A stretch of 64,000 nt of DNA from Acidobacteriota bacterium (GCA_965205505.1 CBDBHB010000007.1:384001-448000); one strand, 5' to 3'. Positions 16,719 to 52,752 are shown, counted from the stretch's first letter. Notes: generated by a model not told the origin, from the sequence alone. Translations and numbers: made by a program.

Positions 16719-16856
16719 CGAACCCACCCCCGCTGAGCCTAAGCTTAGCAGGGCCGGGCAGACTACCGGCGGTTGGGGCGCAGCACATGCTGGCGCGTTT
16801 TGCCGCCCCAAAACCGCGATGCTATGCTTGCCGACTCGGTCCGAGCTTTTTCAAGT

Positions 16857-16930: not shown

Positions 16931-16977
16931 CTTCGTTTTTCTGGCAGACCGGCGGGAAGTGTGATGGTCTGCTCCGT

Positions 16978-17460: not shown

Positions 17461-17464
17461 CAGG

Positions 17465-18073: not shown

Positions 18074-18312
18074 GCGGTCTCTTTAGCCAAGGTCTGGAGT
18101 CGTTACCGGGCGTCGTCGCCGCGGCTCGGCGGTATTGTACGCCGGTGATGCGGCCGACCCTACCCTCCGGGCGACAGGGGGTTGCGCGCGCATGCTGCGT
18201 CGTTCCTCGTCAACGATGCGGTAACCATCGCCTCCTCCTCTCTCCTTGCCTCCACTTCGCAAGACCCTGTCGCCAGACCCACCACACTTTCACCACGGCC
18301 TGCTAGTCCGAC

Positions 18313-19212: not shown

Positions 19213-19333
19213 GTGTATTCGACCGCCCCGTTTCTCCTAATCAGGTTAGTAAGGCGAAGGAGCGCTGTCCAGACGCATACGCTGTCTCCGACGGTGAATC
19301 TTCGCGCGGCGGAGTGCTGCCGTAGGCTTCGCT

Positions 19334-20314
19334 GTGCACTTCCAGCCAGCTGGTAGGGCACCCACCGGTGCCGCAACGAATAGAATCGTCGTCGCACTCG
19401 CGCCGCGTCGAGCGCGTCCTGCGGAGCCTCTTGTCTTGTCGCTTCAGATCGGCACTCTTCTCTGTTTGCTGACCATTCCGTTCGCCGCGGTGAACTCGTT
19501 GCACCATGCGCTGGCCCGCCGTCCGGTGCCCAACCGACGGCGCATTCATGCAGTGAACTTGCTCGTCGCCATCGGCTTCTTCGGGTTGGCCAACGTCGCG
19601 CAGGCCAACCCCGGCAATTCGGGCAGCTCGCTCGTCTTCGCGCGCCTGTGGCTGCCGATCGTCTATTTCTGGTGGGCCTACTCCTGGGCCGGGCACACGC
19701 TGCACCTCTTTCACCCACCGGAGTTCTCTTACGACCGGCCGCTGATCGACCTGGAACAGCGGCTGTTCGGCAATCCCAGCCTGTGGCTGGCGCGCGGCCG
19801 CCCGGCGTGGCTCAACGAGCTGATGCATATCTCCTACTGGCTATACCTGTTCTTTACCCCAGTGCTCGGCATCGCGCTGTACGCGGCAGGCGATTTCCAG
19901 CGCTTCGAGGCCATGGGACTGGCCGTGTGTCTGGGCTACGTGATTTGTTATTCGGCCTATCCCTGGATGCCGCTCTGGGGGCCACGCTGGGCTCTGGTTT
20001 CGGAGGGCCTGCTTCCCGAGGCCGAACGGCTGCTGCCGGGACACCTGATCACCGGTTGGACGAACCGGATCATGTGGAGCTCGACTGCGCACAAAGGGGG
20101 GGCGATGCCCAGCGCCCACAGCTCTACCTGCCTGGTTTTCATGGTTTGGTGTTGGCGGATCTGGGGGGTGAGTGGCGCCCTCGCGGGCGGCGTGATCGGC
20201 GGCCTGATGTTCGTGAGCACGGTGTACGGTCGCTACCACTATGTGGTTGACGTGCTCGCCGGAGTAGCCGTTGGCCTGGTGTCGCTCGGCCTGGCAGATC
20301 TGCTCACGCGATAG
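19334..20314 (+). CDS. PAP2/inositol-phosphorylceramide-synthase-like membrane phosphatase/transferase
   Basis: GP.W, AMPSAHS, STVYGRYHYVVD. Confidence 0.82.
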   Translation: MHFQPAGRAPTGAATNRIVVALAPRRARPAEPLVLSLQIGTLLCLLTIPFAAVNSLHHALARRPVPNRRRIHAVNLLVAIGFFGLANVAQANPGNSGSSLVFARLWLPIVYFWWAYSWAGHTLHLFHPPEFSYDRPLIDLEQRLFGNPSLWLARGRPAWLNELMHISYWLYLFFTPVLGIALYAAGDFQRFEAMGLAVCLGYVICYSAYPWMPLWGPRWALVSEGLLPEAERLLPGHLITGWTNRIMWSSTAHKGGAMPSAHSSTCLVFMVWCWRIWGVSGALAGGVIGGLMFVSTVYGRYHYVVDVLAGVAVGLVSLGLADLLTR

Positions 20315-20731
20315 CTACAGCGTCGCGAGCAGCAACAAAAAGAGCGCCGTGTTGATCGCGTGGCTGGTGAAGCACAACGTACAGCGGACACCGAGCACGT
20401 AGATCAGCGAATAAGACAGATACGCAGCCAGCACGACGGTGGCGGCCGCAACGGCCAGGTAGCCGTACACCCACGGTCGTTGCAGGGCGGCGCCGTCCGA
20501 CACACCGATGAGCAGCGCCAGGTAGTACACCTGTCCCAACAACGAGTTGGGCACACCGAATACCCGCGCCTGCGGGGTGAACACCACCAGCGTGCAGGTG
20601 CCCTCGTCGAGTCGACAAAACGGCGGGATCCACTGCGAATCAGGCCGCATCCAGCGGAACGCTACCGCGGTGAAGTAAGTGGAGACCAGCAGGCCAGTCA
20701 GCGCCATTACCAGGAACAGTGATTCGATCAT
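20315..20731 (-). CDS. Vitamin K epoxide reductase (VKOR) family protein
   Basis: Loop cysteines C.....C..V..., FGVPNS.LG, CTLC active site. Confidence 0.85.
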   Translation of the reverse strand: MIESLFLVMALTGLLVSTYFTAVAFRWMRPDSQWIPPFCRLDEGTCTLVVFTPQARVFGVPNSLLGQVYYLALLIGVSDGAALQRPWVYGYLAVAAATVVLAAYLSYSLIYVLGVRCTLCFTSHAINTALFLLLLATL

Positions 20732-21464
20732 CGCTGCGCTCAGCCTAGTATTGATGAGGACAGAACGTCCCAGCGCAGGGGAGGGTTGCTTGAGATTATC
20801 TACGCCAGACCGTTGGCTACTTGCTGCTACGATCGCAGCGGTCCTGAGCCTCGGATCGTGCGCGCCGGCGCCAACCGGCACGGTCCGGCTGGTTGACGGC
20901 AACACGGTCGAATTTCCGGCTACCGTGCAATCGAGCGCTTTTGCTCAAGGAGACACCGCCGGCTACCACCTCGTGGTATGGCGCGGTGGGCGAGCCACCG
21001 ACCACGCGCTCTTTGTCGCCAGCGTAGGTGACATTCAAGTCATCGACGCTCTCGAGTCGCTCGGCGCCGCGCCCGGCGATGCACTCTCCATCGACACCTG
21101 GGAGCAACGCCACGACACCGAGGCAGCGGCTCCCGATCGAACGATCGAGGGTCCGAGGGTCGAGCTGGAGTTCTTGCTGCCGGGATCCGAGCAGCCACTA
21201 GCGCTCGACGAGTTCCTCGACGATTCCGGAGATCGCGGTTTCGACATGCGCTTCGGCGGCCATCGCGGCAATATCGATGCGTGGCACTCCGGCTGCGTCG
21301 TATGCCTCTATTCGTGCCCGGGCAGCAAAGTAGGCAACGCGCGTTATACGGTGCGCGACTTCGTCGCCGGTGGGCCGCATTTTACGGTGCGCCCGGGCAT
21401 ATTGCCCGCCGACGGAACGGAGGTTACGGTCCGACTACGGTTGGTCGAAGGGGGGGTCTCATGA
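20679..21464 (+). CDS. YdjY-domain (lipo)protein
   Basis: Lipobox-like LGSC; F.MRFGG...SGCVVCLYSC; true start probably near 20789. Confidence 0.7.
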   Translation: METSRPVSAITRNSDSIIAALSLVLMRTERPSAGEGCLRLSTPDRWLLAATIAAVLSLGSCAPAPTGTVRLVDGNTVEFPATVQSSAFAQGDTAGYHLVVWRGGRATDHALFVASVGDIQVIDALESLGAAPGDALSIDTWEQRHDTEAAAPDRTIEGPRVELEFLLPGSEQPLALDEFLDDSGDRGFDMRFGGHRGNIDAWHSGCVVCLYSCPGSKVGNARYTVRDFVAGGPHFTVRPGILPADGTEVTVRLRLVEGGVS

Positions 21465-21491
21465 AGGTACTGCCCAGCCTGGCGGTCTACG

Positions 21492-22268
21492 TCAACGTTG
21501 TTGCATCCGATGCACCGCTTGCGCCACGAGCGCACGCGGCGCGCAGCGAACCGACAACGCCATCAGGCGATTCTTGAGCCCGGGTATGAACACCCTGCGC
21601 CCACGCCACAGCGCCGCATAGCCGGCGGCGGCGACCGTTGCCGCATCGGGAACGCCCGCCGGCACCGGAAGTTCGTCGCGCCCATGCAACACGGCGCGAA
21701 ACTCGGTCAGCGTAGGACCGGGGCAGAAAGCACTCACGACGATGCCTGCGTCACGTACCTCCTCGGCGATCGCCTCGCTGAAGTGGAGGACGAAGGCCTT
21801 GGTCGCAAAGTAGACGCTCATCAGTGGCCCGGGCTGGAAAGCCGCCGTCGAAGCCACGTTCATGATCCAGCCCCGGCGACGTTGACGCATCGTCGGTAGG
21901 AACAGGCCGGTAAGTCCGACAAGGGCGCTAACGTTCACCTGGATCATCTCCAGCTGGCGATCGAGATCCGTGTCGGCGAAGCTTCCCGAGCACCCGAACC
22001 CGGCGTTGTTGACAAGGACATCGATCTGCAGGCCGCGTTGCTGAACACTCTCGTGCAACGCCCGCGCCGCGCCAGCCGCGGCCAGGTCCGCGGCGATCAC
22101 AGCCACCTCCACATCATGGGCATCAGACAGCTCGGCAGCCAGCTGCCGGAGCCGGTCCTGGCGCCGTGCGGTGAGCACCAGGTCGTGGCCGTCGGCGGCA
22201 AACAGTTTGGCCAGCTCGAAACCGATGCCGCTGGAGGCGCCGGTAACGAGCGCCGTGATCTTGCCCAT
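21492..22268 (-). CDS. Short-chain dehydrogenase/reductase
   Basis: TGASSGIG, NNAG, YFATK. Confidence 0.93.
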   Translation of the reverse strand: MGKITALVTGASSGIGFELAKLFAADGHDLVLTARRQDRLRQLAAELSDAHDVEVAVIAADLAAAGAARALHESVQQRGLQIDVLVNNAGFGCSGSFADTDLDRQLEMIQVNVSALVGLTGLFLPTMRQRRRGWIMNVASTAAFQPGPLMSVYFATKAFVLHFSEAIAEEVRDAGIVVSAFCPGPTLTEFRAVLHGRDELPVPAGVPDAATVAAAGYAALWRGRRVFIPGLKNRLMALSVRCAPRALVAQAVHRMQQR

Positions 22269-22392
22269 CGTCGTCTTCTCCCTCGCCGAGGTTGTTCTGG
22301 ACGATCACGCTTCGCTTCGGTTCCGGGATTCCCGCGATCTGCTCGCCTATAATCCGGGCGGGCGCGAGCGTACAAACCCTGGGGAGCTCAGC

Positions 22393-24501
22393 ATGATCCG
22401 ACAACGCCGCATTGCTCTCGTGATCGCGTGCGCGATCACCGCCGTAGTTTCTATCAGCAGCGATGGCAGCGCCCAGTTTGGCACTCGCGCTGTCAGCCTG
22501 ACCGACTACTACGAGCTCGTCGGCGTGAGCAGCCCTGCGATGGCGCCCGACGGAAGCTCGGTGGCGTTCGTTCGAACTGTGGCCGTGGAGGCGGAAAATA
22601 CACGGCGGGCCGAGCTCTGGCTGGCGGATTCACGCGACGTGATCCCGCCCCGGCGACTTGCCAGCGCCGCGTTCGACGCCAGCAATCCGATCTGGAGCCC
22701 CGACGGACGGCTGCTCGCATTCACCTCCGGACGCGGGGTCACGCAGGAGATACCGGGCAGTATCTGGTTCCTCGACTTGCAACAGGGTGGCGAAGCGTTT
22801 CAGATCGAGGGCGTCGAGGGCAGCCCGGTCTTTAGCCCAGACGGACGCTGGATCGCATATACGCGAGCTACACCGCCAACCGGCGAGGCGGCGGCGCGCA
22901 CGTGCTCCGGACGTGGAAGCTATGAACAAGATGCCGAGCTCGAGCAGCTGTTGCGAGATCGCTTCAATGGTCTGATCTACGACTGGCTCCAGTACCGGTT
23001 CGACCGCCGCGGCTACCTCCCCGACCCGGCCGATCCGCTTGCGTCACCGCCGCGCGAGCTGTACCTCGTTCCGCGCGCCGGCGGGCCGCCGCGCCAGCTG
23101 ACCCAGCTGGGCTTCGATGTCGGCGACGTAGCGTGGCACCCGGACAACGAGCGGCTCGTCTTCTCTGCCGACGAGCATCAGCGTGACGAGTTCACCTACC
23201 CGCGGCACGACCTCTGGGCGGTCGATTTCGCCGGCAGTATCGAACGACTCACCGACGACGGATTCGTCAACAGTCGGCCGCGGTGGAGCTCCAACGGTTC
23301 GACGGTGGTCTATCGGGGCGTCGAGGGGCTCGACGCAGTCATCGAAGCAGAGCGCGGCCGCGGAGCACCAACCGACCTGTACGCGCTCGACGTCGCCGGC
23401 GGTGTAGCCCGCAACCTCACGGCGTCTTGGGACCTCCGACCCCGCGCCCATGAAGTGAGTGCCGACGGCACGGTGCGCTTTAGCGGCGGGACCGGCGGCC
23501 AAAACCATCTCTTCTCCGTGCCGGTTGCCGGCGGCGCCATTCGGCAGCTCACGGACGGTCGCCGGTGGCTCGCGGGCGTGAGCTTCGGCGCTGATCCGCG
23601 CACCTTCGCCTACACCTCCACCACGAGCACGTCGCCGGCGGAGCTCTACGTGACGCGGCCAGACAGCGGTGAGACCCAGCTCACCCGGTTCAACCAGCTG
23701 CTGGTCGCGAACACGATGCCAAGGGTCGCCCGCCCGATCGAGTACCCCAGCAACGACGGCACGTTGATCGAAGGTTGGGTCATCCTGCCGCCGGGATATG
23801 CACCGGATGAAGGCCCCTACCCGCTGATCCTGAACATCCATGGCGGGCCGCACGGCGCCTTCGGCGAGCGCTACTCGTTGGAGTTTCAGCTCTGGGCGAA
23901 GGAGGGGTTCGTGGTGCTCTACACGAACCCGCGCGGGTCCAGCGGATATGGCGAGGACTTTCTGTGGGCTACTTGGGGCGGTTGGGGCGGCTTGGACTAC
24001 GAAGACGTGATGTCGGGCGTCGACTACGCGCTGCAGAACTTCGCCATCGACGAGGAGCGTCTGGGGGTGTCCGGCTACTCTTATGGCGGCTTTCTGACCA
24101 ACTGGATCATCACCCAGACCGACCGCTTCGCAGCGGCGATTTCCGGCGCCGGGATCTCCAACTGGCTCAGCGACTATGGAACCGCCGACATTCCGCGCAC
24201 CAAGGAGTCGGAGTTCTACGGACCGCCCTGGAAGCCGCGCAGCGGCGATCTACTGTGGGAGCAATCGCCCATCAAGCACGCCGATGGCATCTCGACTCCG
24301 ACCTTGATCATTCACGGCGAGAGCGACTATCGCGTGCCGATCGAACAGGGTGAGCAGATGTATACGGCGCTACGCAAACAGAGGGTGCCGGCGAGGATGG
24401 TTCGCTATCCCGACTCCTACCACGGTGGCTGGCGTCCCTGGGACATGGTGCACCGGTACTCCGAGGAGCTGACTTGGTGGAACAAGCACCTGGGCAACTA
24501 G
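22393..24501 (+). CDS. S9 (prolyl oligopeptidase/acylaminoacyl peptidase) family peptidase
   Basis: Signal peptide, WSPDG propeller repeats, IHGGP, GYSYGG, HGESDYRV, H near the C-terminus. Confidence 0.93.
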   Translation: MIRQRRIALVIACAITAVVSISSDGSAQFGTRAVSLTDYYELVGVSSPAMAPDGSSVAFVRTVAVEAENTRRAELWLADSRDVIPPRRLASAAFDASNPIWSPDGRLLAFTSGRGVTQEIPGSIWFLDLQQGGEAFQIEGVEGSPVFSPDGRWIAYTRATPPTGEAAARTCSGRGSYEQDAELEQLLRDRFNGLIYDWLQYRFDRRGYLPDPADPLASPPRELYLVPRAGGPPRQLTQLGFDVGDVAWHPDNERLVFSADEHQRDEFTYPRHDLWAVDFAGSIERLTDDGFVNSRPRWSSNGSTVVYRGVEGLDAVIEAERGRGAPTDLYALDVAGGVARNLTASWDLRPRAHEVSADGTVRFSGGTGGQNHLFSVPVAGGAIRQLTDGRRWLAGVSFGADPRTFAYTSTTSTSPAELYVTRPDSGETQLTRFNQLLVANTMPRVARPIEYPSNDGTLIEGWVILPPGYAPDEGPYPLILNIHGGPHGAFGERYSLEFQLWAKEGFVVLYTNPRGSSGYGEDFLWATWGGWGGLDYEDVMSGVDYALQNFAIDEERLGVSGYSYGGFLTNWIITQTDRFAAAISGAGISNWLSDYGTADIPRTKESEFYGPPWKPRSGDLLWEQSPIKHADGISTPTLIIHGESDYRVPIEQGEQMYTALRKQRVPARMVRYPDSYHGGWRPWDMVHRYSEELTWWNKHLGN

Positions 24502-24509
24502 CAGTCCGT

Positions 24510-25454
24510 GTGGCGGTCTCGCTCGCCGTGGCGACGGTGAGCCTCTCGCCGAGCCCCTTCGCTCTTCCAGCCGCTGCGAGCCCGCGACCCACGACGGTCG
24601 TCCAGCCCATTGCCACACTTGGCGGGGCTCCAACGGCTCAGTTGCCACCGCGCCTGCTTACTGACGCCGACGGAGCGCCGCTGCCGTTCGAGTCGGACGC
24701 CGACGTGTTGGAGTTCCTGCGCTCCGCCGAAATTGTCTCGCAGAAACGCTACGACGAGGGCGGGCGGCCGATCGCCTTCAATGACGCCGACGAGTTCGGC
24801 TGCGGAACCTATCTAGTTCGCCTTCGGCTGGGCGCCGTGGAGCTCGATGCGGTCTTCCGCAGCATCGAAGATCGTCTCGGGGTGGCACGCTTCGTGGATG
24901 GGAGCACCGAGGTTCACTTCCGCGACAGCGGCCTTTTCGAGTGCGCCGCGTACGAGCTGAGCACCCTGCTCGGGTTGCACCAGGTGCCGCCGGCGGTGCG
25001 CAGACAGATCGGCCCGGTCGAGGGTAGCCTGCAGATCGTCATCCCGACATCGTTCAACGAGTCGGATCGGGTAACGCGCCGTCTCACCGACCCCTCGTCG
25101 CAACGTTGGAACAAGCAGCTCGCGACGATGTACACGTTCGACGCGCTCATCGCCAATGCCGACCGCAACCGCAGCAACCTGCTGTACGACCCGAGCTGGC
25201 GGGTGTGGCTCACCGATCACTCGCGCGCATTTCGGGTATCCACGCGCCTCGATGAAGCGCCGCTGCAGGCGATCGAGCGTACCTTCTGGACCAGCATGCG
25301 CGCGGTTACAGCGGAGGCGATCAGCGACGCGGTGAGCGACTACCTGAGCGACAGCGAGCTGACCGCGCTTCTCGAGCGTCGCGACCGTCTGGTAGCGCAC
25401 TTCCAGTCGCTGACCGAGCAACGCGGCGAGCAGATGGTGGTGTTCGGCTACTGA
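24510..25454 (+). CDS. Exported PI3/4-kinase/HipA-like fold protein (paralog 2)
   Basis: LPFESD..VLEFLR.AE, ECAAYELSTLLGL..VPP, GSLQ, FDALIANADRNRSN, WLTDH; collinear with 7347-8291. Confidence 0.7.
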   Translation: MAVSLAVATVSLSPSPFALPAAASPRPTTVVQPIATLGGAPTAQLPPRLLTDADGAPLPFESDADVLEFLRSAEIVSQKRYDEGGRPIAFNDADEFGCGTYLVRLRLGAVELDAVFRSIEDRLGVARFVDGSTEVHFRDSGLFECAAYELSTLLGLHQVPPAVRRQIGPVEGSLQIVIPTSFNESDRVTRRLTDPSSQRWNKQLATMYTFDALIANADRNRSNLLYDPSWRVWLTDHSRAFRVSTRLDEAPLQAIERTFWTSMRAVTAEAISDAVSDYLSDSELTALLERRDRLVAHFQSLTEQRGEQMVVFGY

Positions 25455-25572
25455 CCCGGTTGGGGGGCTAAGAGGTTGCTTGGGGTGCTTTGCTGCCCGG
25501 CCCCGGGGCGTGGATGCGGGGCACGAGAACGAGAGCCCCGATGCTATCCTAGGCGCGCTCGACGGCCAGCTC

Positions 25573-25667
25573 GGAGGGGTAGCGAAGTCCGGCCGTAACG
25601 CGCTCGACTCGAAATCGAGTTGTCGGCGTAAAAACCCGGCACGTGGGTTCGAATCCCACCCCCTCCG
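25573..25667 (+). tRNA. tRNA-Ser(CGA), left boundary of the mobile region
   Basis: GGAGGGG/CCCCTCC acceptor stem, CTCGA-CTCGAAA-TCGAG anticodon arm, long variable arm, GTGGG-TTCGAAT-CCCAC. Confidence 0.96.
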
Positions 25668-25953
25668 CTCTCCATTTTCTTTAAGTCGCTGCAATGAAAC
25701 AAGATGCCAATACAGGATCTCGAGGTGCATACAATTACAGCCACAATACCAGACAAGAACGCACGGGTACCAGAGATCCCGTTCGGGAACGGCTGGAGCG
25801 TGGTCATGCCGGACACCAGGCCGCGATGAGAATCCTAGCGACCATCCTGCGGCGGGTTGGTCTCGGCGCTGGCCATCGCGGCTGCCTACGCGCTACCGGC
25901 GCCTACGCAACCTAGAGCACCAGCACCCAGAGCTCACTCGCGGCCTGTGCGAC

Positions 25954-27759
25954 GTGCTGCCCCGGAAGGTGCTGGCGCGGCTGCCGAGCTTTCCGCATCC
26001 GTGGCCGGAGGATCTCGCCGCGGAGCTGACGCCGGAGCTGGTAGCCGAAGCGCTGCTCCAGCTGGTGCCGCACGTCGGCTGCGATACCGCGTCGGCCTCC
26101 AGGTTCTTTCAGACGATCCGCGACAGTCGCGGCCATTGGAACAAGGAAGTGTCCTGGCACCGTGGGCTCGTGATCTTGCCGCCGCTCGCCGCGGCTCACT
26201 GGTTGCACCAGCTGGTGCTCGGCGCGCCGTTGCAGGATGCGCGTGGGCACGTTCGTCATCTGGTGATCGACTACGACGGGCCACGGCACCTCTGCGATCC
26301 GGAGACGCGACACGAAGCGCTGTGCGAGATTCGCACCGCTGGCGTGCCCGTGTGGTTCGCCACGCGGCCGAGTTGCAACCGCGAGCAATCGATGCACGTA
26401 TACGTGCTGCTGGATCAGCCAATGCCGGCGGAGGCGGCGGCCGAGCACGTGCGGCGTCTGTTGCGCGCCAAGCCGGGGGCGCCACCGGGGCAGTGGTACG
26501 AGATCCTGGTGGGTGCTTGTCGTCTGCCGGCCGGTCTTGACGCCGCCCGGCTCGACCCCGCCACCGGTGCCGAGCTTAAGGAATCGCCTAGCGAGCAGCT
26601 GCGCGCGATTCTCCAGCTGCGCGGCAACTGTGACCGGCTCCGGGTGCGCAAGCGTCCAATTCGTGTCCCGGGGATGGTGCAGGACACGCGTGGATCCTTC
26701 GCCGCAGGTCCGGGTGCGGAGACCTGCCTAAATCGGGCACCATCGCCGCTGGAGGCGATCGCAGCCGCAGCCGAGGCACGCGCCGAGCGCTACGAGCTCG
26801 CGGAGGCCGCGGGCGGTGAGCGTCCGCGCTTCGGATCCGTCGGGCCACTACCGTGGGACGAGCCGCGCGAGATCGGACAGCTGCTGCGCTCCGGATCGGT
26901 GGACCCGGGTCGCCGGAACGCACTGGCGCGGGCTGTGGGTCATTACGCACACGCTGCGGGCCTCGACGAGCACCAAGTTCTCGAGGCCTTCGACGCGATC
27001 ACGTTCCAGGGCGCCACGTGGACCGAGCTGCGCGGCTGGCGAGCCGACTGCACGAGATCCTACGGCCGCGGCGCCGAGTTGCTGCGCAACCCCGCCGCGA
27101 CCGAGGCCATGATGCCGATGCCTCACAAGCTCCGCGAGATCGCCACAGCCGCGCTCGAGCAGCTGCCTGACGACGTGCGCTCCCGCCTCGAGGCCGACGC
27201 GGCCGAGATCCCACACCGGGCACTGCGGCGCGCGTTCCTGCGCGCCGTCGGCTATACGCTTGCCCGGTGCCGGCACGGGCGACCTGACGTGCCAGCCTTG
27301 ACGTTGCGCGCGTTGGTCGGTACGCCGCGCTGGTGCGCGCCAGCGATCGACCGCGCCGTGCTCCTCGGCTGGCTCCGGATCGAACGCGAAGCCGATCGCC
27401 TCGAGCACCGCTGCCGGCGCTTTGCACCAGGTCCTCGAGCCAATGCTCCGGCTGCCGAGCCTGCGCGCGGGTGCATCATCGAGTTCCCCATGCAGCACAG
27501 GAGCATCGTCCCGAAGGGGGTACGGACCGACAGGAGTACTCCCTCACGCACGGTCCGCGGTCCGACAGGGGTACTCCCCACGCACGGTCCGACAGGGGTA
27601 CTCTCCACGCACGGTCCGACAGGGGAAACGCTGCCGACACGCCTGCCGGGGACAAAGCGATCGCGGGCCGCCGAGCGCCGCCCGAACAACTGCTGCGACC
27701 GCCTACCGGCGCAGGCGAGTCGAACGGTCGGGACCCCTATCGGGTTCACGAAAAAGTAG
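25954..27759 (+). CDS. Putative replication protein: AEP primase-like + PriCT-like + winged-helix tail (start uncertain)
   Basis: LVIDYD (motif I), SMHVYV (motif II), E....CRLP; PGRRNALARAV PriCT-like; C-terminal AIDRAV.LGWLRI..R.RRF wHTH-like. Confidence 0.6.
   Translation: MLPRKVLARLPSFPHPWPEDLAAELTPELVAEALLQLVPHVGCDTASASRFFQTIRDSRGHWNKEVSWHRGLVILPPLAAAHWLHQLVLGAPLQDARGHVRHLVIDYDGPRHLCDPETRHEALCEIRTAGVPVWFATRPSCNREQSMHVYVLLDQPMPAEAAAEHVRRLLRAKPGAPPGQWYEILVGACRLPAGLDAARLDPATGAELKESPSEQLRAILQLRGNCDRLRVRKRPIRVPGMVQDTRGSFAAGPGAETCLNRAPSPLEAIAAAAEARAERYELAEAAGGERPRFGSVGPLPWDEPREIGQLLRSGSVDPGRRNALARAVGHYAHAAGLDEHQVLEAFDAITFQGATWTELRGWRADCTRSYGRGAELLRNPAATEAMMPMPHKLREIATAALEQLPDDVRSRLEADAAEIPHRALRRAFLRAVGYTLARCRHGRPDVPALTLRALVGTPRWCAPAIDRAVLLGWLRIEREADRLEHRCRRFAPGPRANAPAAEPARGCIIEFPMQHRSIVPKGVRTDRSTPSRTVRGPTGVLPTHGPTGVLSTHGPTGETLPTRLPGTKRSRAAERRPNNCCDRLPAQASRTVGTPIGFTKK
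27523..27626 (+). repeat. 27-bp iteron-like direct repeats (3 full copies plus partials)
   Basis: CGGWCCGACAGGRGTACTCYCCACGCA-like units at 27523 (28 bp), 27558 and 27585, partial at 27612; palindromic core GGRGTACTCC. Confidence 0.85.
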
Positions 27760-27792
27760 CTGCGCACAATTCGCGCATAAAATGACCGGCAA

Positions 27793-28030
27793 ATGAAAAT
27801 CGAGCCCAAAGTTATCCGCCGCCTACGATGGAACCGCCGCTATCGACGATGGCGCGCCGGAATCCTCCGGAACGAGCCGTTATGCCGTTCCTGCGCTGAA
27901 GCGGGATTTACGGTCGCAGCGGAGCACATCGACCACATCGAGGCCGTCCACCTGGCGCCTGAGCGCTTCTGGGACCGCGAGACAACATCCGGCCGATCTG
28001 CCGGGACGGCCACATCGGCCGCATCACGAA
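27793..28030 (+). pseudogene. Phage packaging-type HNH endonuclease, copy 1 (frameshifted)
   Basis: WRAGILRNEPLCRSC...IDHIE...FWDR, then frameshift to NIRPICRDGH. Confidence 0.75.
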
Positions 28031-28156
28031 CGGTAATCCTCGTCTCGACCGATCAGGCACGCGACGCCGTAGTTTCCGCGCATCTCCCATCGCGGGGGAG
28101 CGCATGAAAGGGGCCAGATTCTCGGTCGTTTCGCCCGCTTCGTCAGATAGGGCAGC

Positions 28157-28728
28157 GTGAATAACCCTTGGGTTAACCTGCCACGGAGATACCCTCCGTT
28201 TGTTCTCCCACAGGAATATCGCCTTATTCGTGCGTTCAACGACGAGGTACGAACCGCAGATCATCACATCCGTACGGAGCTTCTGCCTGAGCCGTACCTT
28301 GGCTGCCCGGACGCCCCAGTCGTCCTGCTCGGCCTAAATCCTGGGTTCTCAGAGCACGATGCTCCTTTCTATGCGGTTCCTCATGTCCGTGCCGTCTGGG
28401 AGAAGAACCTCCTTCACGAGTCGATGGAATTCCCGTTCTATCTCCTGAATCCAGGTCTTCCACAGGGCGTCGGCGGTCCCCGGTGGTGGCGGAAGAAGCT
28501 CAACCAGCCACTCAAGATTGCTGGTGACAGGCTCACAGCAAGCAGTTTCTTTTGCATCGAGTATTTTCCTTACCACTCGAGGCGATACAGGCCCCTAGGG
28601 ACAACGCTGCCTTCCCAGGAGTACTCCTTCTGGTTGCTCCGCCGGGCGATGAAGAGGAATGCTTTGGTAATCGTGACCCGCTCCCGCAAGATCTGGGAGG
28701 AAGCGGTTCCTGAACTACGCCGATACCC
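28157..28728 (+). pseudogene. Uracil-DNA-glycosylase-like hypothetical protein, 3' truncated
   Basis: PEPYLG.PDA.VVLLGLNPG and IEYFPYHS motifs; lower GC; reads into unrelated sequence after about 28728. Confidence 0.55.
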
Positions 28729-28796
28729 CGCGGCGCCGTACGTGTCGCCGAAGCAGGCCGGGTCGGTCGCTAGCGTCACCAGCGCCGGAACCGCCA

Positions 28797-29339
28797 TCAG
28801 TGCACCGCGCCGTCGCCACCGTCGGGTTTCCGGTGCCGAGCCTCGGCCGCCGCCCACGTATCGGCGAACTGCTCCACAGCGTCACGCTGTGCCTCCGTTG
28901 CCGAGGATGCCGCAAGCGCTTGTTCGAGTCGTGCGCACGCCTGCATGTAGCGGGGTAGATCAGCCGGCGTCAGCTCGTCGGGGCTCATGCTCCGCAGCCG
29001 CTGTGCCACCAGCGCACGCGCATCGTCGAGCACTCCGCCCCATGCCTCCATGCGCTCCGTCCGAGTGTTCACCGTACGATCCAACACGCTCCGATCCACC
29101 GCCGCATCCCATTGGGCGGCGCGCTCGCGCCACGAGAACCGCCTCGCCCAGCCTATCCACGTCGGCCGCCGCGCCGAGATCGCCGCCCCTGCCTCCGTGT
29201 CCGAGAGATCCACCGAGCGCGGCGCGGGCAAGTCCCGGTACAGCAGCCACGCCGCGAACGCCTTGGCTGTTTCTGCTGGCTGGCGGTCCCAGAGCTTCAT
29301 GCGACGAGCGTACTCCAAGCGATCCGAAACCGTGCCCAT
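28797..29339 (-). CDS. Phage protein, terminase-small-subunit-like
   Basis: WDRQPAETAKAFAAW..YRDL...RS...W...F.W.ERAAQWD family motif; coupled downstream ORF MAVPA...DPACF is cut off. Confidence 0.5.
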   Translation of the reverse strand: MGTVSDRLEYARRMKLWDRQPAETAKAFAAWLLYRDLPAPRSVDLSDTEAGAAISARRPTWIGWARRFSWRERAAQWDAAVDRSVLDRTVNTRTERMEAWGGVLDDARALVAQRLRSMSPDELTPADLPRYMQACARLEQALAASSATEAQRDAVEQFADTWAAAEARHRKPDGGDGAVH

Positions 29340-29662
29340 CCCTCGCGCGCGAGAAGACTTCGGGGTTGATTCTAAAGCGCCGCCCACCGTCGCCACGCTG
29401 CGTCCCAATCTCGCCGACAAGACCGCGCGGATTCTCGGCAACCGTCGAGCGTTCGTTCATCAACGCGAGCGTCCCAATCTGTCGCGCGGAGCGCCCATTC
29501 ATGGCGCTTCGCCCATCGGCTCCATGATCCCGGATCAGAGGTGACGGGCGTCGCGCCTGGAGGAATGCGACGACAATCACGTACTTGGCACGGGGTGGAC
29601 ACCGCTAAAGAGCTTCTCGCGCGGCTTCGCCGCAAGCTGCTGCGACCGGACGAGCCGGACGA

Positions 29663-29845
29663 GTGAGCCGCCGATACTTGATAAGCCGCGCCCCGCTGGC
29701 GAAGGCGCTCAGGCGATCGGCGGATGAGATTCGAAGGTGGCAAGAGGCGGGGATGTCGGTCGTCACCAAGGGCCGCAGGGGATTCTCTGGCGCACGTTGG
29801 GGCAAGGTTGCCGACGTGGCGGCCGCCCGTGCCGAGCGCGATTGA
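29663..29845 (+). CDS. Small Nu1/MerR-like HTH DNA-binding protein
   Basis: LAKAL.RS.DEIRRWQEAGMSVVTKGRRG resembles lambda Nu1 IQNWQEQGMPVLRGGGKG. Confidence 0.5.
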   Translation: MSRRYLISRAPLAKALRRSADEIRRWQEAGMSVVTKGRRGFSGARWGKVADVAAARAERD

Positions 29846-30224
29846 CTCGCGCTGCCTGCGAGCACTTCGCCGATCAGGCCGTCACCAAGCGCGGCCACCG
29901 AATCGAGACCCCTTGAGATCCCGATAGCATCGCCACGCGGCGCGTGCGGGCTCACACTCCTCGCGTTTGTCTTTCACCGACGTCACACCATAGACGAGCT
30001 TTCGCGTCGCTCTTGAGGTCGTGCTCAGACTGGTGCGATCGCGCACCAGAGATCAAAACCCGCAAACTAGTTGTCGCGATGAGCTGATCCCGTTAGCGGG
30101 AATAGCTGAGCGAGACACGTAGGGCAACAGGACGAAACGGACGGCGCCGAACTACAGATCATTCATGCAGCGCTGCCAGTCCTGGGGATGCTCGTACTAC
30201 TCGGATGGCTCCCGCCAGCGGAGC

Positions 30225-31388
30225 TCATGCACGCTTACCTTGAGCCCGATCGCGCCACGATCCTACGTGGGCAGCCGGGTCGAGGATCGATCGGATTCGC
30301 GGTTGCTTCGATAGCGCCTTGGTCACCAAGCAGAGGTGGTATATCGCCCTATTGTCGGGATGGCGCGCCGCCTCCCACTCGTTCGCCGTCAACTCGACCG
30401 TAGTGATTGTCTTCCCCGAGGTCGCCTTGACCTCGATGAGCTTCTCGCGGCCGTCGGGATAGTACGAAGTGATGTCCCAGCCGGGGTACTCGTTGATCTC
30501 CTCTAGCCGCCGCACTCGCTTCGCTAGATCGGGGCGACCGGCTTGTTCGAGCTGGTCTCGCTCGTACCTGAGCACATGTGCCTCGCCAGCATCTCCTACC
30601 TTCTTGGATTGCTGGCTGCGCCGTGGCTTGGACGACTTGGTGCTGTCGCCACTCCCGCGCTTATCCGCCGGCGGCAACGGAGTGAACTCCTCGAAGCTGA
30701 TGGTCGGGGCCTCTTCGATCGCGGGCGCGGCGCTTTCAGCGAGCCTCGCCGGGTCGGGGACCAGATCGTTCGAGATCAGCTCCTCGTAGAGCCTCAGCAT
30801 GCGACGCAAGTCGGCGGCAAGGCTCTCCGATGTTGGCAGGTCAGCAAGACGGTATCTCTGGTGTGCGATCGACCCCTGCTCATAGAGCGCGTGCAACTTG
30901 TGCCGCCGGCGATCAGTGGCCAGATCCAGGGGCCCGATGTCGAATCCCCAGCTCGGTAGATCGACCACCTTCGCAACGAATTCACGTGCCCATCGCAGCC
31001 GGTCGTAGCAACTTGTCGAGCTGCCAAAGAGCTGCTGAAACACGGTGACGCCGATCGCTGCGGATAAATAGAGGTGCTGCAGATCAATAGAGAACAGATA
31101 GACCGGGTAAAGCCCGTGGGTCGCGCTGTCGGTGACCCGTAGATCAAAGGAGGCCACCCACGGGGCCGCCGTGACATTGCCGGCTCCGGTCGAGCCTTCG
31201 ACTTTGAAGCGAGGAGCCGCGTCCCCGAGGAGTTCCGTCAGCGCATGGGGGATATCCTTGAGCACGAGCTGGTAGGCTCGGTGGTTACTGTCCACTTTGG
31301 CGGGCTTGCCGGACGCTCGATTGTCCCGATAGGAGGGCCAGGACTCGACGACCTCGGAGAACAGCGCTCCAAGATCTGCCACCGTCAC
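30225..31388 (-). CDS. DUF3578 (McrB-N-like) + DUF3883 PD-(D/E)XK nuclease, putative modification-dependent restriction enzyme
   Basis: GSTGAGN.T.APWV..FD.RVT.SATHGLYPVYLFS; G.AGE..V..YE, GWDITS, IEVKAT, LTANEW. Confidence 0.8.
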   Translation of the reverse strand: MTVADLGALFSEVVESWPSYRDNRASGKPAKVDSNHRAYQLVLKDIPHALTELLGDAAPRFKVEGSTGAGNVTAAPWVASFDLRVTDSATHGLYPVYLFSIDLQHLYLSAAIGVTVFQQLFGSSTSCYDRLRWAREFVAKVVDLPSWGFDIGPLDLATDRRRHKLHALYEQGSIAHQRYRLADLPTSESLAADLRRMLRLYEELISNDLVPDPARLAESAAPAIEEAPTISFEEFTPLPPADKRGSGDSTKSSKPRRSQQSKKVGDAGEAHVLRYERDQLEQAGRPDLAKRVRRLEEINEYPGWDITSYYPDGREKLIEVKATSGKTITTVELTANEWEAARHPDNRAIYHLCLVTKALSKQPRIRSILDPAAHVGSWRDRAQGKRA

Positions 31389-31803
31389 GCCTCTGAGGGA
31401 GGTCTCGTCATACTCGATGACCTCGCCGGCTGGCTGGCCGGGGCTCGGTTCGCACGCTCTTCCGGCCAGATTGCTGTGAATTTACTTTCAACGGTTGTCT
31501 TGGTGATGCCCGGCCAGCCTGAAGGCGCTAAGGAGGGCGTGGAGCGGCTGGCCAGCGGAGCGGGAGGGCTAGTGCGACCTGTCACGATCCTTGAGCCGAT
31601 CTATTTGCTCGCAATCCTCGTAAACATCGTACCGCTGCATGTCGTTTATTTCCGCTGAGAAGGGCAGAATACGCCGAAACGTCAGCGTGGTTCAAAAGCG
31701 CTCGAAACGGATTTGAAGTTCGCGGAAGGAGCACTCGGATAACCCGGAAGCCACCGCCTGTTGCACAGCTGCCCTGAGGCGGGCATCGAGGGTTAGTATC
31801 GAG

Positions 31804-31960
31804 CTACTCACACTCGTCCTTGAGGACGATCCGTCCGTAGCCGTAGGCGGACAACTTGACGTACATGCCGCCGAGCATGACCTGCGCCGCGATCTGGCCC
31901 CGCTCGGCGGCCAACTGATACCAGCGCATGGCTTCGGCAGCGTGCTGGGCGGACGCCCCG
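31804..31960 (-). pseudogene. Sel1-repeat fragment
   Basis: AEAMRWYQLAAERGQIAAQVMLGGMY. Confidence 0.6.
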
Positions 31961-32171
31961 CCCAGCTTCGTTCCTGCCGCCGGGAACGGCTCGCCATTGC
32001 GATGATCGATGCAGCGGGCTGACACGGTTGGCGGGTGGTCTCGACGACGGAATTCGCGACCGTTTTGTTAACTATTTGTTAACTTTCGCCGTCGAAACGG
32101 CGGAAATGGACCGAGACGAAATGCCCCGTCCCCATCGGTATCTTCTTATTTTGAAAGAGGTTAAACCGAAG

Positions 32172-32226
32172 TACCCAAGGAGGGACTTGAACCCTCACGG
32201 GCTTGCACCCACTAGGTCCTGAACCT
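32172..32226 (-). other. 3' part of tRNA-Leu(CAG): att-site duplication
   Basis: AGGTTCAGGACCTAG-TGGGTGCAAGCCC-GTGAGGG-TTCAAGT-CCCTC-CTTGGGTA; D-arm and 5' acceptor strand missing; adjacent GTTAACAAA direct repeats at about 32065-32085. Confidence 0.8.
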
Positions 32227-32282
32227 GAGTTCATGCTCTGCGGCGGCTTGACAAACCTGGGAAGCAGCACGATAGGCTGCTA

Positions 32283-33473
32283 GTGAACTCCACCCGAAGC
32301 TGCCGATCTCCCCGGAGTCCACCCGTGCCGAAGAGCCTACCAACAGTCACGCCACGGATCGTGTTGCCAGCCCTCGGGGTGTTGATCGGTGTCCTCGGAC
32401 CCGCCTTCCTGCTCTCCGATCCGGGGACGATCGCCGGCCTCCGTGAAACGTTTCTGACCCGGCAGCCGGAACCCATCGTGGCAACGTTGCGGTCGAGTGC
32501 AAGCGCCGGCTGTGGCAAGGCACCGCCGACGCAACCCGGCGCCACAGAGACGCTGACGTTGACCTACGATGGCCTCGAACGCACGTACAACGTGCATCTG
32601 CCGCCGAGCTACAAGCCTAGCAAGCGCCACAGCCTCGTGCTGGCCTTTCACGGCTACAGCAGCAGCGCCAGGGTTGCAGAGCACGGAACCGGTATGAGCC
32701 TGCATGCCGATGCCAAGGGGTACATCGCCGTGTACCCGGAATCGACGCGCTTCCGTGTCGGTGGATCTCGGCGGATCTCGTCGTGGAACGACGGCGCATG
32801 CGCCAGTTCCCCGGGTCCCGAGGGACCGACCTGTACCGCTGACTCGTTCCAATATCCGTTTCCCGATGAATGCGGTCCGGCTCGATGTAACTGGTGCAAT
32901 TGTGTCGACGATGTCGGTTTCGTCGCTGCCATGCTCGACGAAATCGAGAATGCCTACTGCATCAATACGCGTCGGATCTACGCGACCGGCTTGAGCAACG
33001 GCGGCATGTTCGTACAACGGATGGCATGCGACCTAGCGGACCGCTTCGCTGCCGTATCCCCGTCGCACGGACAGCTACACGTCGGGTTCAACTGTGCGCC
33101 GTCCGAGCCCATGTCGATGATGAGCGTGTGGGGCAAGCGCGACCGGATCGTACCCGGCGCTGGTGAGGTCAGCTCCGACGGATATCTGTACACGCCGGTG
33201 GCCGAGGTGACGGAGATCTTCGCCGGTCCTGAGTCACAGAGATGCGATGTGACCGACACAGCCTACAGAAGCCCGGCCGATGGCGTTCGGGGGTGGGCCT
33301 GTACACAGCGCGCCAACTGCGCCCGCAGGCGTCAGGTGGTGGCGTGTTCCTGGAACGGTGGCCATCGCTGGCCGGTATACGACGCCGGTGTGTACTTCGG
33401 GCTCGATACCGTCTGGCGTTTCTTCAAGAAGAACCGCAAACCGCCGGAAAAGCTCCCCGCCGCTCGCCGGTAG
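32283..33473 (+). CDS. Alpha/beta hydrolase, PHB depolymerase/LpqC-like esterase
   Basis: LVLAFHG, DDVGF, YATGLSNGG, GGHRWP. Confidence 0.85.
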   Translation: MNSTRSCRSPRSPPVPKSLPTVTPRIVLPALGVLIGVLGPAFLLSDPGTIAGLRETFLTRQPEPIVATLRSSASAGCGKAPPTQPGATETLTLTYDGLERTYNVHLPPSYKPSKRHSLVLAFHGYSSSARVAEHGTGMSLHADAKGYIAVYPESTRFRVGGSRRISSWNDGACASSPGPEGPTCTADSFQYPFPDECGPARCNWCNCVDDVGFVAAMLDEIENAYCINTRRIYATGLSNGGMFVQRMACDLADRFAAVSPSHGQLHVGFNCAPSEPMSMMSVWGKRDRIVPGAGEVSSDGYLYTPVAEVTEIFAGPESQRCDVTDTAYRSPADGVRGWACTQRANCARRRQVVACSWNGGHRWPVYDAGVYFGLDTVWRFFKKNRKPPEKLPAARR

Positions 33474-33524
33474 CATCTCCACTCGAGCATCTGTTGCCAG
33501 TTGTACTGCCCAACGCGGTGCCGC

Positions 33525-33711
33525 TGTTTCGAAGGTCGAGTGTCCGGGCACTCGCTGCGGGTCGGCTCGGCACAGTCACTCGCCGCCGCTGGTGCTGGCC
33601 TGGTCGAAATGCAGGCTGGCCGGGTGGCTCTCGCCGACCATGCCGGCTCGCTACGCACGCGGCGAGCTTGCCGCTCGAGGTGCAGTGGCTAGGCTGCGCT
33701 ACGGAGCCTAG
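33525..33711 (+). pseudogene. Tyrosine recombinase (Cre-like) C-terminal fragment, frameshifted
   Basis: SGHSLRVGSAQSL...AGR/W.S..MPARY. Confidence 0.7.
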
Positions 33712-33800
33712 TAGACGGGCTCTCGACAGGTACTTTGGCCTACGCCGCCGGATGCCGTGCGGTCATCGTCAAGTGACGTCGGAAGCTCGCTGAGCTGAGC

Positions 33801-34620
33801 CAGAGGTGGACCCCGAAATTCGGACAGCTTGCTAAGGTGGAATCCAGACCAAGGAGAAGGAGTCTGGAATGCCACGGAAGAGACGAAGCTACACGGTCTC
33901 TCGCAAGCGGGTGCGCCGCCTGATGCGGCTGCTGCGGTTGCAAGCTATCTTCCAGCGGCCCTGGACGTCTCAGCCGCACCCGGAGCACAGGATCTATCCC
34001 TACCTGCTGGGCGATCTGCAGATCACGCGACCGAACCACGTTTGGTGTGCGGATGTGACCTACATCCCGCTGCAGCGAGGTTTTCTGTACCTGGTTGCGG
34101 TGATGGACTGGGCGAGACGCAAGGTGCTGTCCTGGCGCCTGTCCAACACGCTCGATGCGAGCTTCTGCGTCGAGGCCTTGCAAGAGGCTCTCGAGCGCTA
34201 CGGTGCGCCCGAGATCTTCAACACTGATCAGGGTAGCCAATTCACCAGCGTCGATTTCACCGACGCGCTCAAGGAGGCCGGCATTCGGATCTCCATGGAC
34301 GGCAAGGGCCGCTGGATGGACAACGTCTTCATCGAGCGGCTATGGCGATCACTGGAATACGAGCAAGTCTATCTGTCAGAGTACGCGACTGGCTCCGAGG
34401 CTCGGGCCGGGATCGGCTGCTGGATGGACTTCTACAACGAGCGCCGACCGCACTCGTCGCTCGACGACCGGACGCCCGAGGAGGCGTACACTGACGACGG
34501 GGCTGAAAGGAGCCTGGGGCTACGCCCCGTCTCCTGTCAGCCCAAGGCAGCCTGAATCATGAACCCGGATTCCACCTTAGCTGTGACCCAAACCTGTCCA
34601 AAGGATGGGGTCCACCTCTG
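33801..34620 (+). mobile_element. IS3-family element with internal deletion (OrfA start fused to OrfB)
   Basis: Terminal IRs CAGAGGTGGACCCC / GGGGTCCACCTCTG; DDE ORF 33869-34555; near-identical to 52753-54055 minus about 480 bp. Confidence 0.9.
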
Positions 34621-34719
34621 ACTGCCGCTTTTGAGCCAGGTTGCCGACCCCAACGACTAAGGCAGCTCACTGTGCAGACAGGAACTCCTGGACCGTACGC
34701 GACGCCTGTTCCTGCCTGC

Positions 34720-36325
34720 CCTCTCTGCCAACGTGGGGTGAGACGATGGAAGTTGGATAATTACTGACCCACGGGGCGGCTCGGAGTGGCACAGATGTTG
34801 GAGTTGGAGAATAACGGAACAGGTAAGCAGGTCGTTGGATCTGCGGCGGAGGGACGCGTAGGCGACCGGAGACGCAGATCCAACGATCGCGCCTCGAAGA
34901 TACCGGATCCGGAACTGGTGGAACGCCCGCGTCGGCGCAAGTTCAGCGCCGAGTACAAGCTTCGCGTTGTGGGCGAAGCGGATCGATGCACCAAGGCCGG
35001 CGAGGTCGGCTCGCTGTTGCGCCGCGAAGGGCTGTACTCGTCGCATCTGTCGGAGTGGCGCAAGCAACGTGACGCCGGGGCGCTGGTGGCGCTCACCAAG
35101 AAGCGAGGTCGACCGGCGACGGATCCCCGAGACGCGAAGATCGCCAACCTGCGCGGCCGCCTCGAGCGCACCGAGGCGGAACTCGAGAAAGCACGGCGGG
35201 TGATCCAAGTGTAGGGAAACGTCTCCGCGCTTCTGGGGGATCTGCTCGATCCCAGGGGCGCGAACGGGAGTACCAAGAAATGATCGAGCAGACCGTCCAG
35301 GAGCTCACGCCCATCATCGGGACGCGCCCAGCATGCCGGTCTCTGGGAGTGTCGCCAGCAACGATGTATCGACGACGTCGGCCACCCGTGCCAACAGTGA
35401 GCCGTCCTGGAGCGAAGCCTGCCAGGGCACTCTCGGACACGGAGCGCGAGCAGGTGCTGGCCGAGCTGCACAGCGAGCGGTTCCAGGACTGTGCGCCAGC
35501 CCAGGTATGGGCGACGCTGTTGGACGAGGGCCGCTACCTGGCCTCGGAGCGCACGATGTACAGAATCCTCGCCGCCGAGGGCGAGGGACGGGAGCGACGC
35601 AACCAGCTCGTTCATCCACCTTACTACAAGCCCGAGTTGCTGGCTGAACAACCCAACGACTTGTGGAGCTGGGACATCTCGAAACTGCTGGGGCCCAGCA
35701 AGTGGACCTACTTGTACCTGTACGTAGTGCTGGACGTGTTCAGCCGCTACGTAGTCGGGTGGAGCGTGCAACACCGCGAGAGCGGTCCTCTCGCCGAGCA
35801 GCTCATCGGCCAGGCCATCGAGTAACAGCGGATCACGCCTGGCCAACTCACCCTGCATGCTGACCGCGGCAGCTCGATGAGGTCCAAGCCCGTTGCCTTC
35901 CTGCTCGCTGATCTGGGCGTCACCAAGACGCACTCAAGGCCGTATACGTCATCGGATAATCCGTACTCGGAGGCTCACTTCAGGACGCTCAAGTACCGGC
36001 CGGAGTTCCCGGCGCGGTTCGACTCCATCCAGCAGGCTCGCAGCTTCTGCCGCGCCTTCTTCCATTGGTATAACCACTGCCACCGTCACTCCGGCATCGG
36101 CCTGGTGACTCCAGCGACCATGCACCACGGCCTCGCCCAGGCGGTCCAGCACAAGCGCGCCGAAGTTCTTCTGGCGGCCTTCCGCGCGCGGCCCGAGCGC
36201 TTCGTCAGCAGCGTGCCTCAACCACCGCCGGTGCCCACCGTGGCCTGGATCAACAAACCCGCCAGCATGGAGAATGCTCACTAATTTACGAAACCCACCG
36301 TCTCATCCGCGTTGACAGGCACCGC
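34720..36325 (+). mobile_element. IS3-like element, inactivated by nonsense codons in OrfA and OrfB
   Basis: OrfA PDPELVERPRRRKFSAEYK; OrfB WSWDI, HADRG, DNPYSEA split by TAA at 35823; imperfect IRs CTGYCAACG..TGAGAC. Confidence 0.85.
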
Positions 36326-52750: not shown

Positions 52751-52752
52751 AG

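Follow-up and report, generated by a model that had tools for sequence, protein, structure and literature searches.

The Rep proteins of ColE2 and pAL5000 are helicase-less initiators that prime at their own origin and carry a DNA-binding tail, and the archaeo-eukaryotic primases (AEPs) have DxD as catalytic motif I and SxH as motif II. Phage satellites of the phage-inducible chromosomal island (PICI) type have as their core an integrase, a regulator of the AlpA, MerR or Stl type, a primase-replicase, a capsid-morphogenesis gene and the small terminase TerS, and HNH is a named component of the capsid-forming type, cfPICI (both as given in the main text of the survey by de Sousa et al. 2023, PMC10085698). 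With these systems in mind, we analyzed a window of 64,000 nucleotides from the genome of an uncultured, soil-type member of the Acidobacteriota (G000; 5.98 Mb, 9 contigs, completeness 96%), namely contig C7:384001-448000, and within it the block 25668-32226, which an initial annotation had taken for a decayed phage satellite between a tRNA-Ser and a tRNA-Leu fragment, replicated by a helicase-less plasmid-type primase, hereafter Rep. Positions are those of the window unless another contig (C) is named. The best explanation, to which we assign a probability of about 0.6, is that the block was once the left part of a small integrative element at the 3' end of tRNA-Ser and is now decayed and rearranged, with scraps of packaging and anti-phage genes. 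This copy is probably the remnant of a new group of PICI-like elements, small, integrative and confined to one genus.

The comparison is based on five full-length Rep copies, four in G000 (loci A-D, A being that of the window) and one in G118, which together with G069, G130 and G208 makes up the other members of the genus (five genomes). These elements resemble PICIs in small size, a tyrosine integrase, a putative primase-replicase by a candidate repeat-type origin, TerS and defense accessories, and in the absence of capsid, tail and lysis genes, and copy D holds four of the five core components in canonical order, that is, integrase, an HTH_17 excisionase/AlpA-type protein, Rep and TerS (PICI features as in the main text of PMC10085698). 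The family of the fifth component, the capsid-morphogenesis gene, was not found among the scanned open reading frames (ORFs) of any copy, where unannotated small ORFs remain. The window copy departs further from the PICI plan, as it has no integrase, no clearly recognizable regulator and no pair of attachment (att) sites and its packaging genes are truncated; it does hold a TerS (phrog_6299), but one that is inverted and attached to a stub of the large terminase TerL. Unlike PICIs, copy D carries TerL, and Rep appears to be a single helicase-less AEP-PriCT protein without sequence match to known families. The presence of HNH, TerS and TerL alongside integrase and primase recalls cfPICIs, yet no capsid, portal, protease or head-tail genes were seen in any copy examined. 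Judged by the Pfam scan alone (no family, E up to 0.1), the window Rep has no sequence link to the Rep of ColE2 or pAL5000, and in contrast to these its gene is chromosomal, at an att junction.

The integrative character of the locus is supported by its left end. Common to all five full-length copies is only the segment 25660-27723, at 84-91% identity (BLAST, four G000 loci and G118). Homology starts in the last tRNA bases and stops ~100 nt past the repeats, so that the shared unit is a 2.05-kb module, intact in the window, of leader, 531-aa ORF and 27-nt tandem repeats (Table 1); beyond 27723 each Rep copy has different DNA, and the defense neighbors differ at every copy. The left end of the module abuts tRNA-Ser(cga) on C7 and C9 of G000 and in G118, while a truncated copy in G118 abuts tRNA-Ser(gct), a gene that shares its final 27 nt with tRNA-Ser(cga). 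These junctions number four, on two tRNA-Ser genes, and three of the five genomes of the genus (G069, G130 and G208) have empty sites, in which the conserved flank begins right after the tRNA; the proposed placement of the module at an integration junction of tRNA-Ser is thus supported. On the left, the window from 16157 to 25652 is 99-100% identical to C9:1-9518 (~9.5 kb), whereas right after this near-identical flank the modules of the C7 and C9 copies (window up to 27723, C9 up to 11570) agree at only 72-94%, which argues for replacement or independent entry and not for slow divergence in place. The duplicated flank is either a true duplication or the product of two strains merged in the assembly. 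The leader probably holds the element-side att arm and a promoter. The repeat array at the other end of the module has a period of 27, with 2.5 copies at 97% and one degenerate copy; within G000 the 27-mer is confined to Rep modules, and its copy number differs among copies and homologues.

Rep has the properties of a real gene. Its frame is open from 25480 to 27759, running through the repeats, with a likely start at the GTG at 25954, its G+C content at the three codon positions (0.74, 0.56 and 0.80) is like that of neighboring real genes, and the four G000 copies contain no internal stop codon. The ratio of nonsynonymous to synonymous substitution (dN/dS) lies at 0.31-0.55 in all ten pairs among the five copies; the two shifted frames give 0.95-2.05. 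These values indicate a protein under moderate purifying selection. Its distribution is narrow: three of the five genomes of the genus carry Rep, and a search of 21 further genomes of the order found it in none. Two large protein collections (1.8-5.8 billion) yielded 8 and 7 relatives, all either at least 58% identical or fragments, the seven coming from a full HMMER scan of 1.84 billion representatives. The ORF has no match in Pfam, PHROGs, NCBIfam (E up to 0.1), PADLOC or PDB sequences, and a profile built from the Rep alignment retrieved nothing from the PDB. IMG/VR contained no relative of Rep or of TerS, and the JGI metagenome contigs no relative of Rep. Hence, the Rep family appears to have no described relatives in the collections searched, and the earlier statement that no such family is described in this lineage agrees with the 7-8 close homologues found among 1.8-5.8 billion proteins.

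As to its nature, Rep is most probably a helicase-less protein composed of an AEP primase and a PriCT domain, an assignment on which several individually weak lines agree. LVIDYD (DYD at aa 106-108; 26269-26277) and SMHVYV (SMH at aa 146-148; 26389-26397) supply the DxD and SxH of the AEP superfamily at the usual spacing, GRRN (aa 319-322; 26908-26919) marks a PriCT-like segment, and the sequence has no Walker A or helicase motif. Language-model (atlas) features relate Rep to AEP-TOTE clusters (0.97) and PriCT_1 (0.95), and also to RepB_primase and BT4734-like_N, with a family or clan in common for eight of the ten best family-bearing matches. Profile alignment by hhalign with 11 acidobacterial AEP-TOTE proteins (score 29.1, P 0.013) placed LVIDYD on LAVDFD (DYD on DFD) and SMHVYV on GAHVWI (SMH on GAH). 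The same method, applied to aa 256-531 and 14 PriCT_1 proteins (score 23.8, P 0.0055), paired PGRRNALARAVGHY with EGRRNAALASLAGA and put GRRN on EGRRN; none of 60 column shuffles reached this score (mean 13.4, sd 2.5). The best-predicted part of the AlphaFold model is a beta-alpha-beta-beta-alpha core around both motifs, and Foldseek with the domain model returned AEP enzymes in eight of the first ten ranks, among them CRISPR-associated Prim-Pol (CAPP; E 0.022, the best value) and LigD polymerase (E 0.05). The likeness to known AEP-PriCT proteins (PF22548, PF08708, RepB_primase PF16793; Prim-Pol 7nqe/7p9j) lies in the DxD/SxH in register, the G-RRN, the domain order and the weak best folds; Rep differs from them in falling below detection of every curated model and in its restriction to one genus. 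For the C-terminal half, the atlas gave PriCT_1 (0.92) and then winged-helix regulators (0.82-0.89), and the winged-helix nature of the helical tail, part of the initial description of Rep, stands as a language-model lead.

Other results count against this assignment. No confident match to the third acidic residue (motif III) follows SMH, with E184 and RLPAG (aa 190-194) as candidates, one of 60 column shuffles reached the real score in the AEP comparison (mean 18.0, sd 4.0), and the hhalign probabilities are only 3-7%. The Pfam models AEP-TOTE (PF22548) and PriCT_1 (PF08708) have no match in G000, and none of the libraries scanned gave a curated family match for Rep. The AlphaFold models of the whole core and of aa 60-249 are poor (mean predicted local distance difference test score 46 and 47), no Foldseek match reached E 0.001, and a wide structural search found only generic folds of the ferredoxin or RNA-recognition-motif type (Z ~6).

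The right end of the element lies outside the block. No integrase or excisionase family was found in 25668-32226 (Pfam, PHROGs), the nearest trace being the 3' remnant of a recombinase at 33522-33705, and the window contains no convincing attR, with three matches to the tRNA-Ser end at up to two mismatches where 1.65 are expected. The tRNA-Leu-like fragment, initially regarded as the att site that closes the block, was rejected in this role: its orientation would place an element to its right, where an esterase gene and the recombinase remnant lie, and it belongs to a repeat with ~18 copies in the genome. This copy number applies to a ~57-nt core (32170-32226), while a 190-nt form (32042-32232) occurs at least four times; an integrase lies beside the fragment in only 1 of 19 places checked, and as its origin either an element-family scar or a small tRNA-derived repeat is conceivable. 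The ancestral right flank was located in G000 at C9:164598, running downward and preceded by the last 12 nt of tRNA-Ser; 93 nt further in than this 12-nt repeat, at C9:164692, lies the gene for a 443-aa P4-type integrase (Arm-DNA-bind_3, Phage_int_M, Phage_integrase). Flank, repeat and integrase together point to an original island at tRNA-Ser with Rep next to the tRNA and the integrase at the opposite end; from the order of these segments, rearrangement later split it. IS3-family copies abound in the region, and the island of G118 has segments in common with the DNA beside the C9 P4-type integrase.

What a more complete element might look like is suggested by copy D (C9:2214239-2222541). It comprises, in this order, a tRNA-Leu-like fragment, integrase, regulator, excisionase, Rep, TerS, TerL and a second recombinase, without capsid genes, and as a member of a satellite family it would be one nonsense codon away from intact. 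Downstream of copy B lies a 420-aa DUF4365 protein (L051:13545-14807, equal to C9:74245-75507; PADLOC Aga_REase-PNTD, 2.1e-22), a defense cargo beside that Rep copy. The interrupted gene in the left flank of copy B does not define a clean insertion site, as that flank is itself just a 341-bp piece of a gene whose whole form lies elsewhere. A further locus, C8:546900-552150, lies beside tRNA-Leu(caa) and shows, by eye from translations, a P4-type integrase, an AlpA-like helix-turn-helix (HTH) protein and a small zinc-finger primase-like ORF.

Downstream of the module, the pieces of the block differ from one another in their paralogues and in the level of identity to them (74-99.6%). The initial annotation had treated 25668-32226 as one element; since only 25660-27723 is shared, the remaining pieces have separate paralogues and three genes are truncated, the block is, on sequence grounds, a mosaic and not one coherent element. 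The features listed at the outset (tRNA-Ser, long ORF, repeats, HNH, TerS-like ORF, HTH, ORF resembling uracil-DNA glycosylase (UDG), nuclease and tRNA-Leu fragment) are nevertheless all present at or near their annotated positions, and the statement that capsid and tail genes are not recognizable agrees with a PHROGs scan of nine ORFs, where the only such match was to a minor-tail family at chance level (E 0.025). Two of the packaging parts do exist, but the HNH is truncated after about residue 62 and TerS is accompanied by only 46 TerL codons.

Table 1. Features of the window around the Rep module, and the genes of sister copy D
Feature	Position	Strand	Evidence or remark
tRNA-Ser(cga), integration target, attL side	25573-25668	+	ARAGORN; Rfam tRNA, 55.8 bits
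Non-coding leader of Rep module, lower G+C, conserved in copies A, B, C and G118	25669-25953	+	four-copy alignment
Rep ORF, conserved core of 531 aa	25954-27546	+	coding signal, dN/dS, motifs
27-nt tandem repeats, ~3.5 copies, candidate iterons/origin	27523-27625	+	Tandem Repeats Finder and repeat finder
Right end of 2.05-kb module common to all copies	27626-27723	+	BLAST and alignment, loci A-D and G118
HNH endonuclease gene, truncated	27793-28107	+	phrog_2323, E 2.7e-13
Brig1-like (UDG-superfamily) glycosylase gene, cut; ORF runs on to 28800	28157-28729	+	NCBIfam NF047634, E 2.9e-8
TerL stub, first 46 codons	28720-28857	-	tblastn with contig C5 TerL fragment, aa 1-46, 93%
TerS-like gene, inverted relative to Rep and HNH	28797-29441	-	phrog_6299, E 1.1e-10
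60-aa HTH protein, Nu1-/excisionase-like, weak assignment	29663-29845	+	TerS phrog_57, E 7.5e-4
MrcB_N + NOV_C protein, candidate type IV restriction-like defense gene	30225-31388	-	Pfam MrcB_N 1.5e-35, NOV_C 1.6e-14
Separate 2.4-kb segment, 99.6% identical to C9:256301-258691	31501-33891	.	paralogue comparison
tRNA-Leu-like 3' fragment (T-arm and acceptor end)	32170-32226	-	tRNA-Leu(cag) match, 44-57 nt, 86-91%
Esterase gene	32283-33473		within 2.4-kb segment
Tyrosine recombinase 3' remnant	33522-33705		within 2.4-kb segment
IS3-family element	from ~33800		follows the above
Copy D integrase, 394 aa		-	phrog_1, 7.8e-58
Copy D DNA-binding protein (regulator), 133 aa		-	
Copy D HTH_17 excisionase-type protein, 68 aa			Pfam, 2.2e-8
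Copy D TerS			phrog_309, 4.1e-13
Copy D TerL, frame unbroken save for one TGA at a site expected to be Trp in relatives			phrog_38, 7.5e-69
Copy D second recombinase, 334 aa			

The truncations can be located. The window HNH is homologous to its paralogues only over aa 1-62/66 (blastp) and in DNA up to ~28013-28018; it has no Pfam HNH match, whereas the intact paralogue at 40012-40320 matches PF01844 at aa 31-78, the end of the HNH domain being lost in the window copy and kept in the copies at 40012-40320 and on C9. Some ten HNH paralogues exist in G000 (window 27799-28013 and 40012-40320, ~8 elsewhere) at 74-86% identity; only their first ~230 nt are conserved, the flanks and C-termini differ, and a LysR-HTH/Sel1-repeat gene comes after the intact gene at 40012-40320. 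With 33.5 bits over aa 37-144, the match of the UDG-like ORF to the Brig1 model stays far below the cut-off of 230 bits, and the ORF represents a distant relative of the anti-phage DNA glycosylase Brig1 (PMC11078745). The gene is no longer whole: up to aa 191/192 it agrees with P0015 at 99%, and it is divergent thereafter (P0016 was compared as well). Next to its 205 homologues, which are ~220 aa long, it is cut at codon 192 of ~227, with the last ~35 residues gone and the ORF reading on into foreign sequence. The point of divergence, 28729/28730, is the exact start of homology to a TerS-TerL segment of contig C5 (28729-29357 equals C5:74161-74789 at 96.5% DNA identity, the C5 ORF matching TerL phrog_2), which indicates that one deletion or recombination joint cut two convergent genes.

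TerS itself, with its true start probably at 29339, has copies at 94% on contig C5 and 62% at C7:707 kb, and a TerS search in 11 genomes of the family found no intact source phage. The 94% copy lies within C5:68151-78024, another mosaic of defense genes and packaging scraps, with a type I restriction-modification-like set (by eye), a 330-aa TerL fragment, insertion sequence (IS) pieces and an HNH at the contig end. The 60-aa HTH protein at 29663-29845 has no Pfam match; its region (29672-29861) has a paralogue at C7:164178-164368 (87.5%), and 29403-29533 has a 91% copy on C8. The MrcB_N-NOV_C gene, whose domains we take to be the former DUF3578 and DUF3883, matches PADLOC PDC-S36 (8.3e-24) and also TmtA and PD-T4-1, appears intact and is single-copy in the genome. 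It may, like Rep with its purifying selection, still function in the window copy.

The G+C content is ~0.60-0.71 across the window, and the block shows no compositional step. IS3-family copies and fragments lie at 33800-36300, 38700-39650, 50200-51480 and 52750-53950. Across G000 and G118, a 1.26-kb IS is present in more than 25 copies at ~99.7% identity, which indicates a recent IS burst. At 54169-56462, a DUF2924 gene is followed by a 598-aa large serine recombinase (Resolvase and Recombinase domains), probably the integration module of another element. Just upstream of tRNA-Ser, the host gene at 24474-25454, which is kept in relatives, weakly matches a HipA_2-like kinase (E 0.003) and PADLOC PDC-M66A (2.3e-5).

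From these elements a mechanism can be proposed. A tyrosine integrase would have joined the att site of the element to tRNA-Ser genes by recombination within their last ~12-27 nt. Once the element was excised, Rep would have bound the 27-nt repeats and its AEP domain made a primer, with host helicase and polymerase taking over, and the HNH/TerS(/TerL) module by the origin would have directed the DNA into the capsids of a helper phage; copy D would show this plan, from integrase, regulator and excisionase through Rep to TerS and TerL, with no capsid genes. The window copy is no longer able to act in this way: HNH, glycosylase and TerL are cut at deletion joints, TerS is inverted, and rearrangement in an IS-rich genome has probably moved the integrase with attR elsewhere.

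How far should this be taken? The reading as the decayed left part of an integrative element has several points against it. The link between the window Rep module and the integrase at C9:164692 comes from synteny, and other islands may have sat between them. With ~1.5-2 repeat units in copies B and C and none recognizable in D, the number is low for an iteron origin. In copy D the integrase is a different one, the scar is tRNA-Leu-like and the leader of the tRNA-Ser copies is missing, so that Rep may be simply a shuffled module. The TerS-TerL of D share 48% identity with those of two full prophages in G039, so that D could be a truncated prophage. Finally, no helper, induction, circular or packaged form has been seen for these elements. 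The two G039 prophages (L075 C2:482001-502000 and L076 C2:3775001-3795000), 96.7-99.4% identical over ~9 kb, both show TerS-TerL followed by long structural-size ORFs, and one lies beside tRNA-Ala. That the block is an ordinary temperate-phage remnant, with Rep as the phage's replication initiator and HNH-TerS-TerL as the start of a late operon whose structural genes were deleted, is in our view rather unlikely, although HNH, TerS and TerL are phage genes, here as fragments, the nearest relatives of D's terminase pair reside in those prophages, and IS elements and deletions abound in the genome. From integrase to TerS, copy D measures only ~4.7 kb with four genes. The early region of a usual temperate phage is far less compact. 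Moreover, IMG/VR holds no Rep relative, and structural genes lie beside none of the five full-length Rep copies. A marker search of G000 found no portal, one partial capsid match and one Terminase_6C, sparse markers that leave no resident helper evident. Of the initial designation as a decayed satellite, decay stands, and the PICI-like order of D without capsid genes speaks for a satellite; as between satellite and truncated prophage, the evidence fits either.

The neighbors of Rep raise another alternative. If Rep were a defense-type AEP, as in TOTE conflict systems or CRISPR-associated Prim-Pol, the block would be a defense island at a tRNA hot spot, and indeed AEP-TOTE and the CAPP Prim-Pol head the feature and fold leads, a Brig1-like glycosylase and an MrcB_N-NOV_C nuclease lie next to it, and copy B adjoins the DUF4365/Aga_REase-like gene. 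Yet the fixed left end at tRNA-Ser and the tandem repeats are like the replication module of a mobile element, Rep of copy D lies between excisionase and TerS, PADLOC gives no match and the Pfam AEP-TOTE model stays silent, and the defense neighbors vary from copy to copy, which makes this explanation very unlikely. Even less credence, indeed hardly any, is due to the idea that the block is still a working satellite, mobilized by an integrase in trans or by homologous recombination, for which TerS and Rep suffice for hijacking. It draws on the open frames of Rep and TerS and on the stability of the block, whose decayed arrangement is present in seven runs from five studies, the joint 28729/28730 being unchanged in assembled contigs from four runs of four studies, which span 27861-29936 and 29922-32082. 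Against it, the block lacks integrase, excisionase and attR, its HNH and TerL are incomplete, its TerS runs opposite to Rep, and none of the listed contigs joins the block ends, although rare forms may escape assembled contigs: the four contig sets are assemblies, in which depth does not equal copy number and excised or circular forms are not visible. The decayed left part of an integrative element thus remains our preferred reading. Its fullest form is possible but doubtful: an undescribed satellite family of Acidobacteriota, of 7-12 kb, that would integrate at tRNAs, replicate by a single AEP-PriCT initiator at 27-nt iterons, carry its own HNH/TerS/TerL without capsid genes and parasitize siphophages like the G039 prophages, the window copy being a fossil of the family turned into a landing pad for defense genes.

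A literature search found no phage satellite described in Acidobacteriota, a phylum that the main text of the SatelliteFinder survey (PMC10085698) does not mention by name, and nothing on TOTE conflict systems with archaeo-eukaryotic primases, nor on PriCT satellites with integrase and terminase. The window copy is itself a dead mosaic, and its value is that of a pointer to the family and of an example of tRNA-linked scars that gather defense genes. If the satellite interpretation is true, phage satellites would extend to the Acidobacteriota, a major soil phylum, and a new replication module, a single helicase-less AEP-PriCT protein, would exist outside all current profiles. It would also account for the failure of tools built on known core genes to find such elements.

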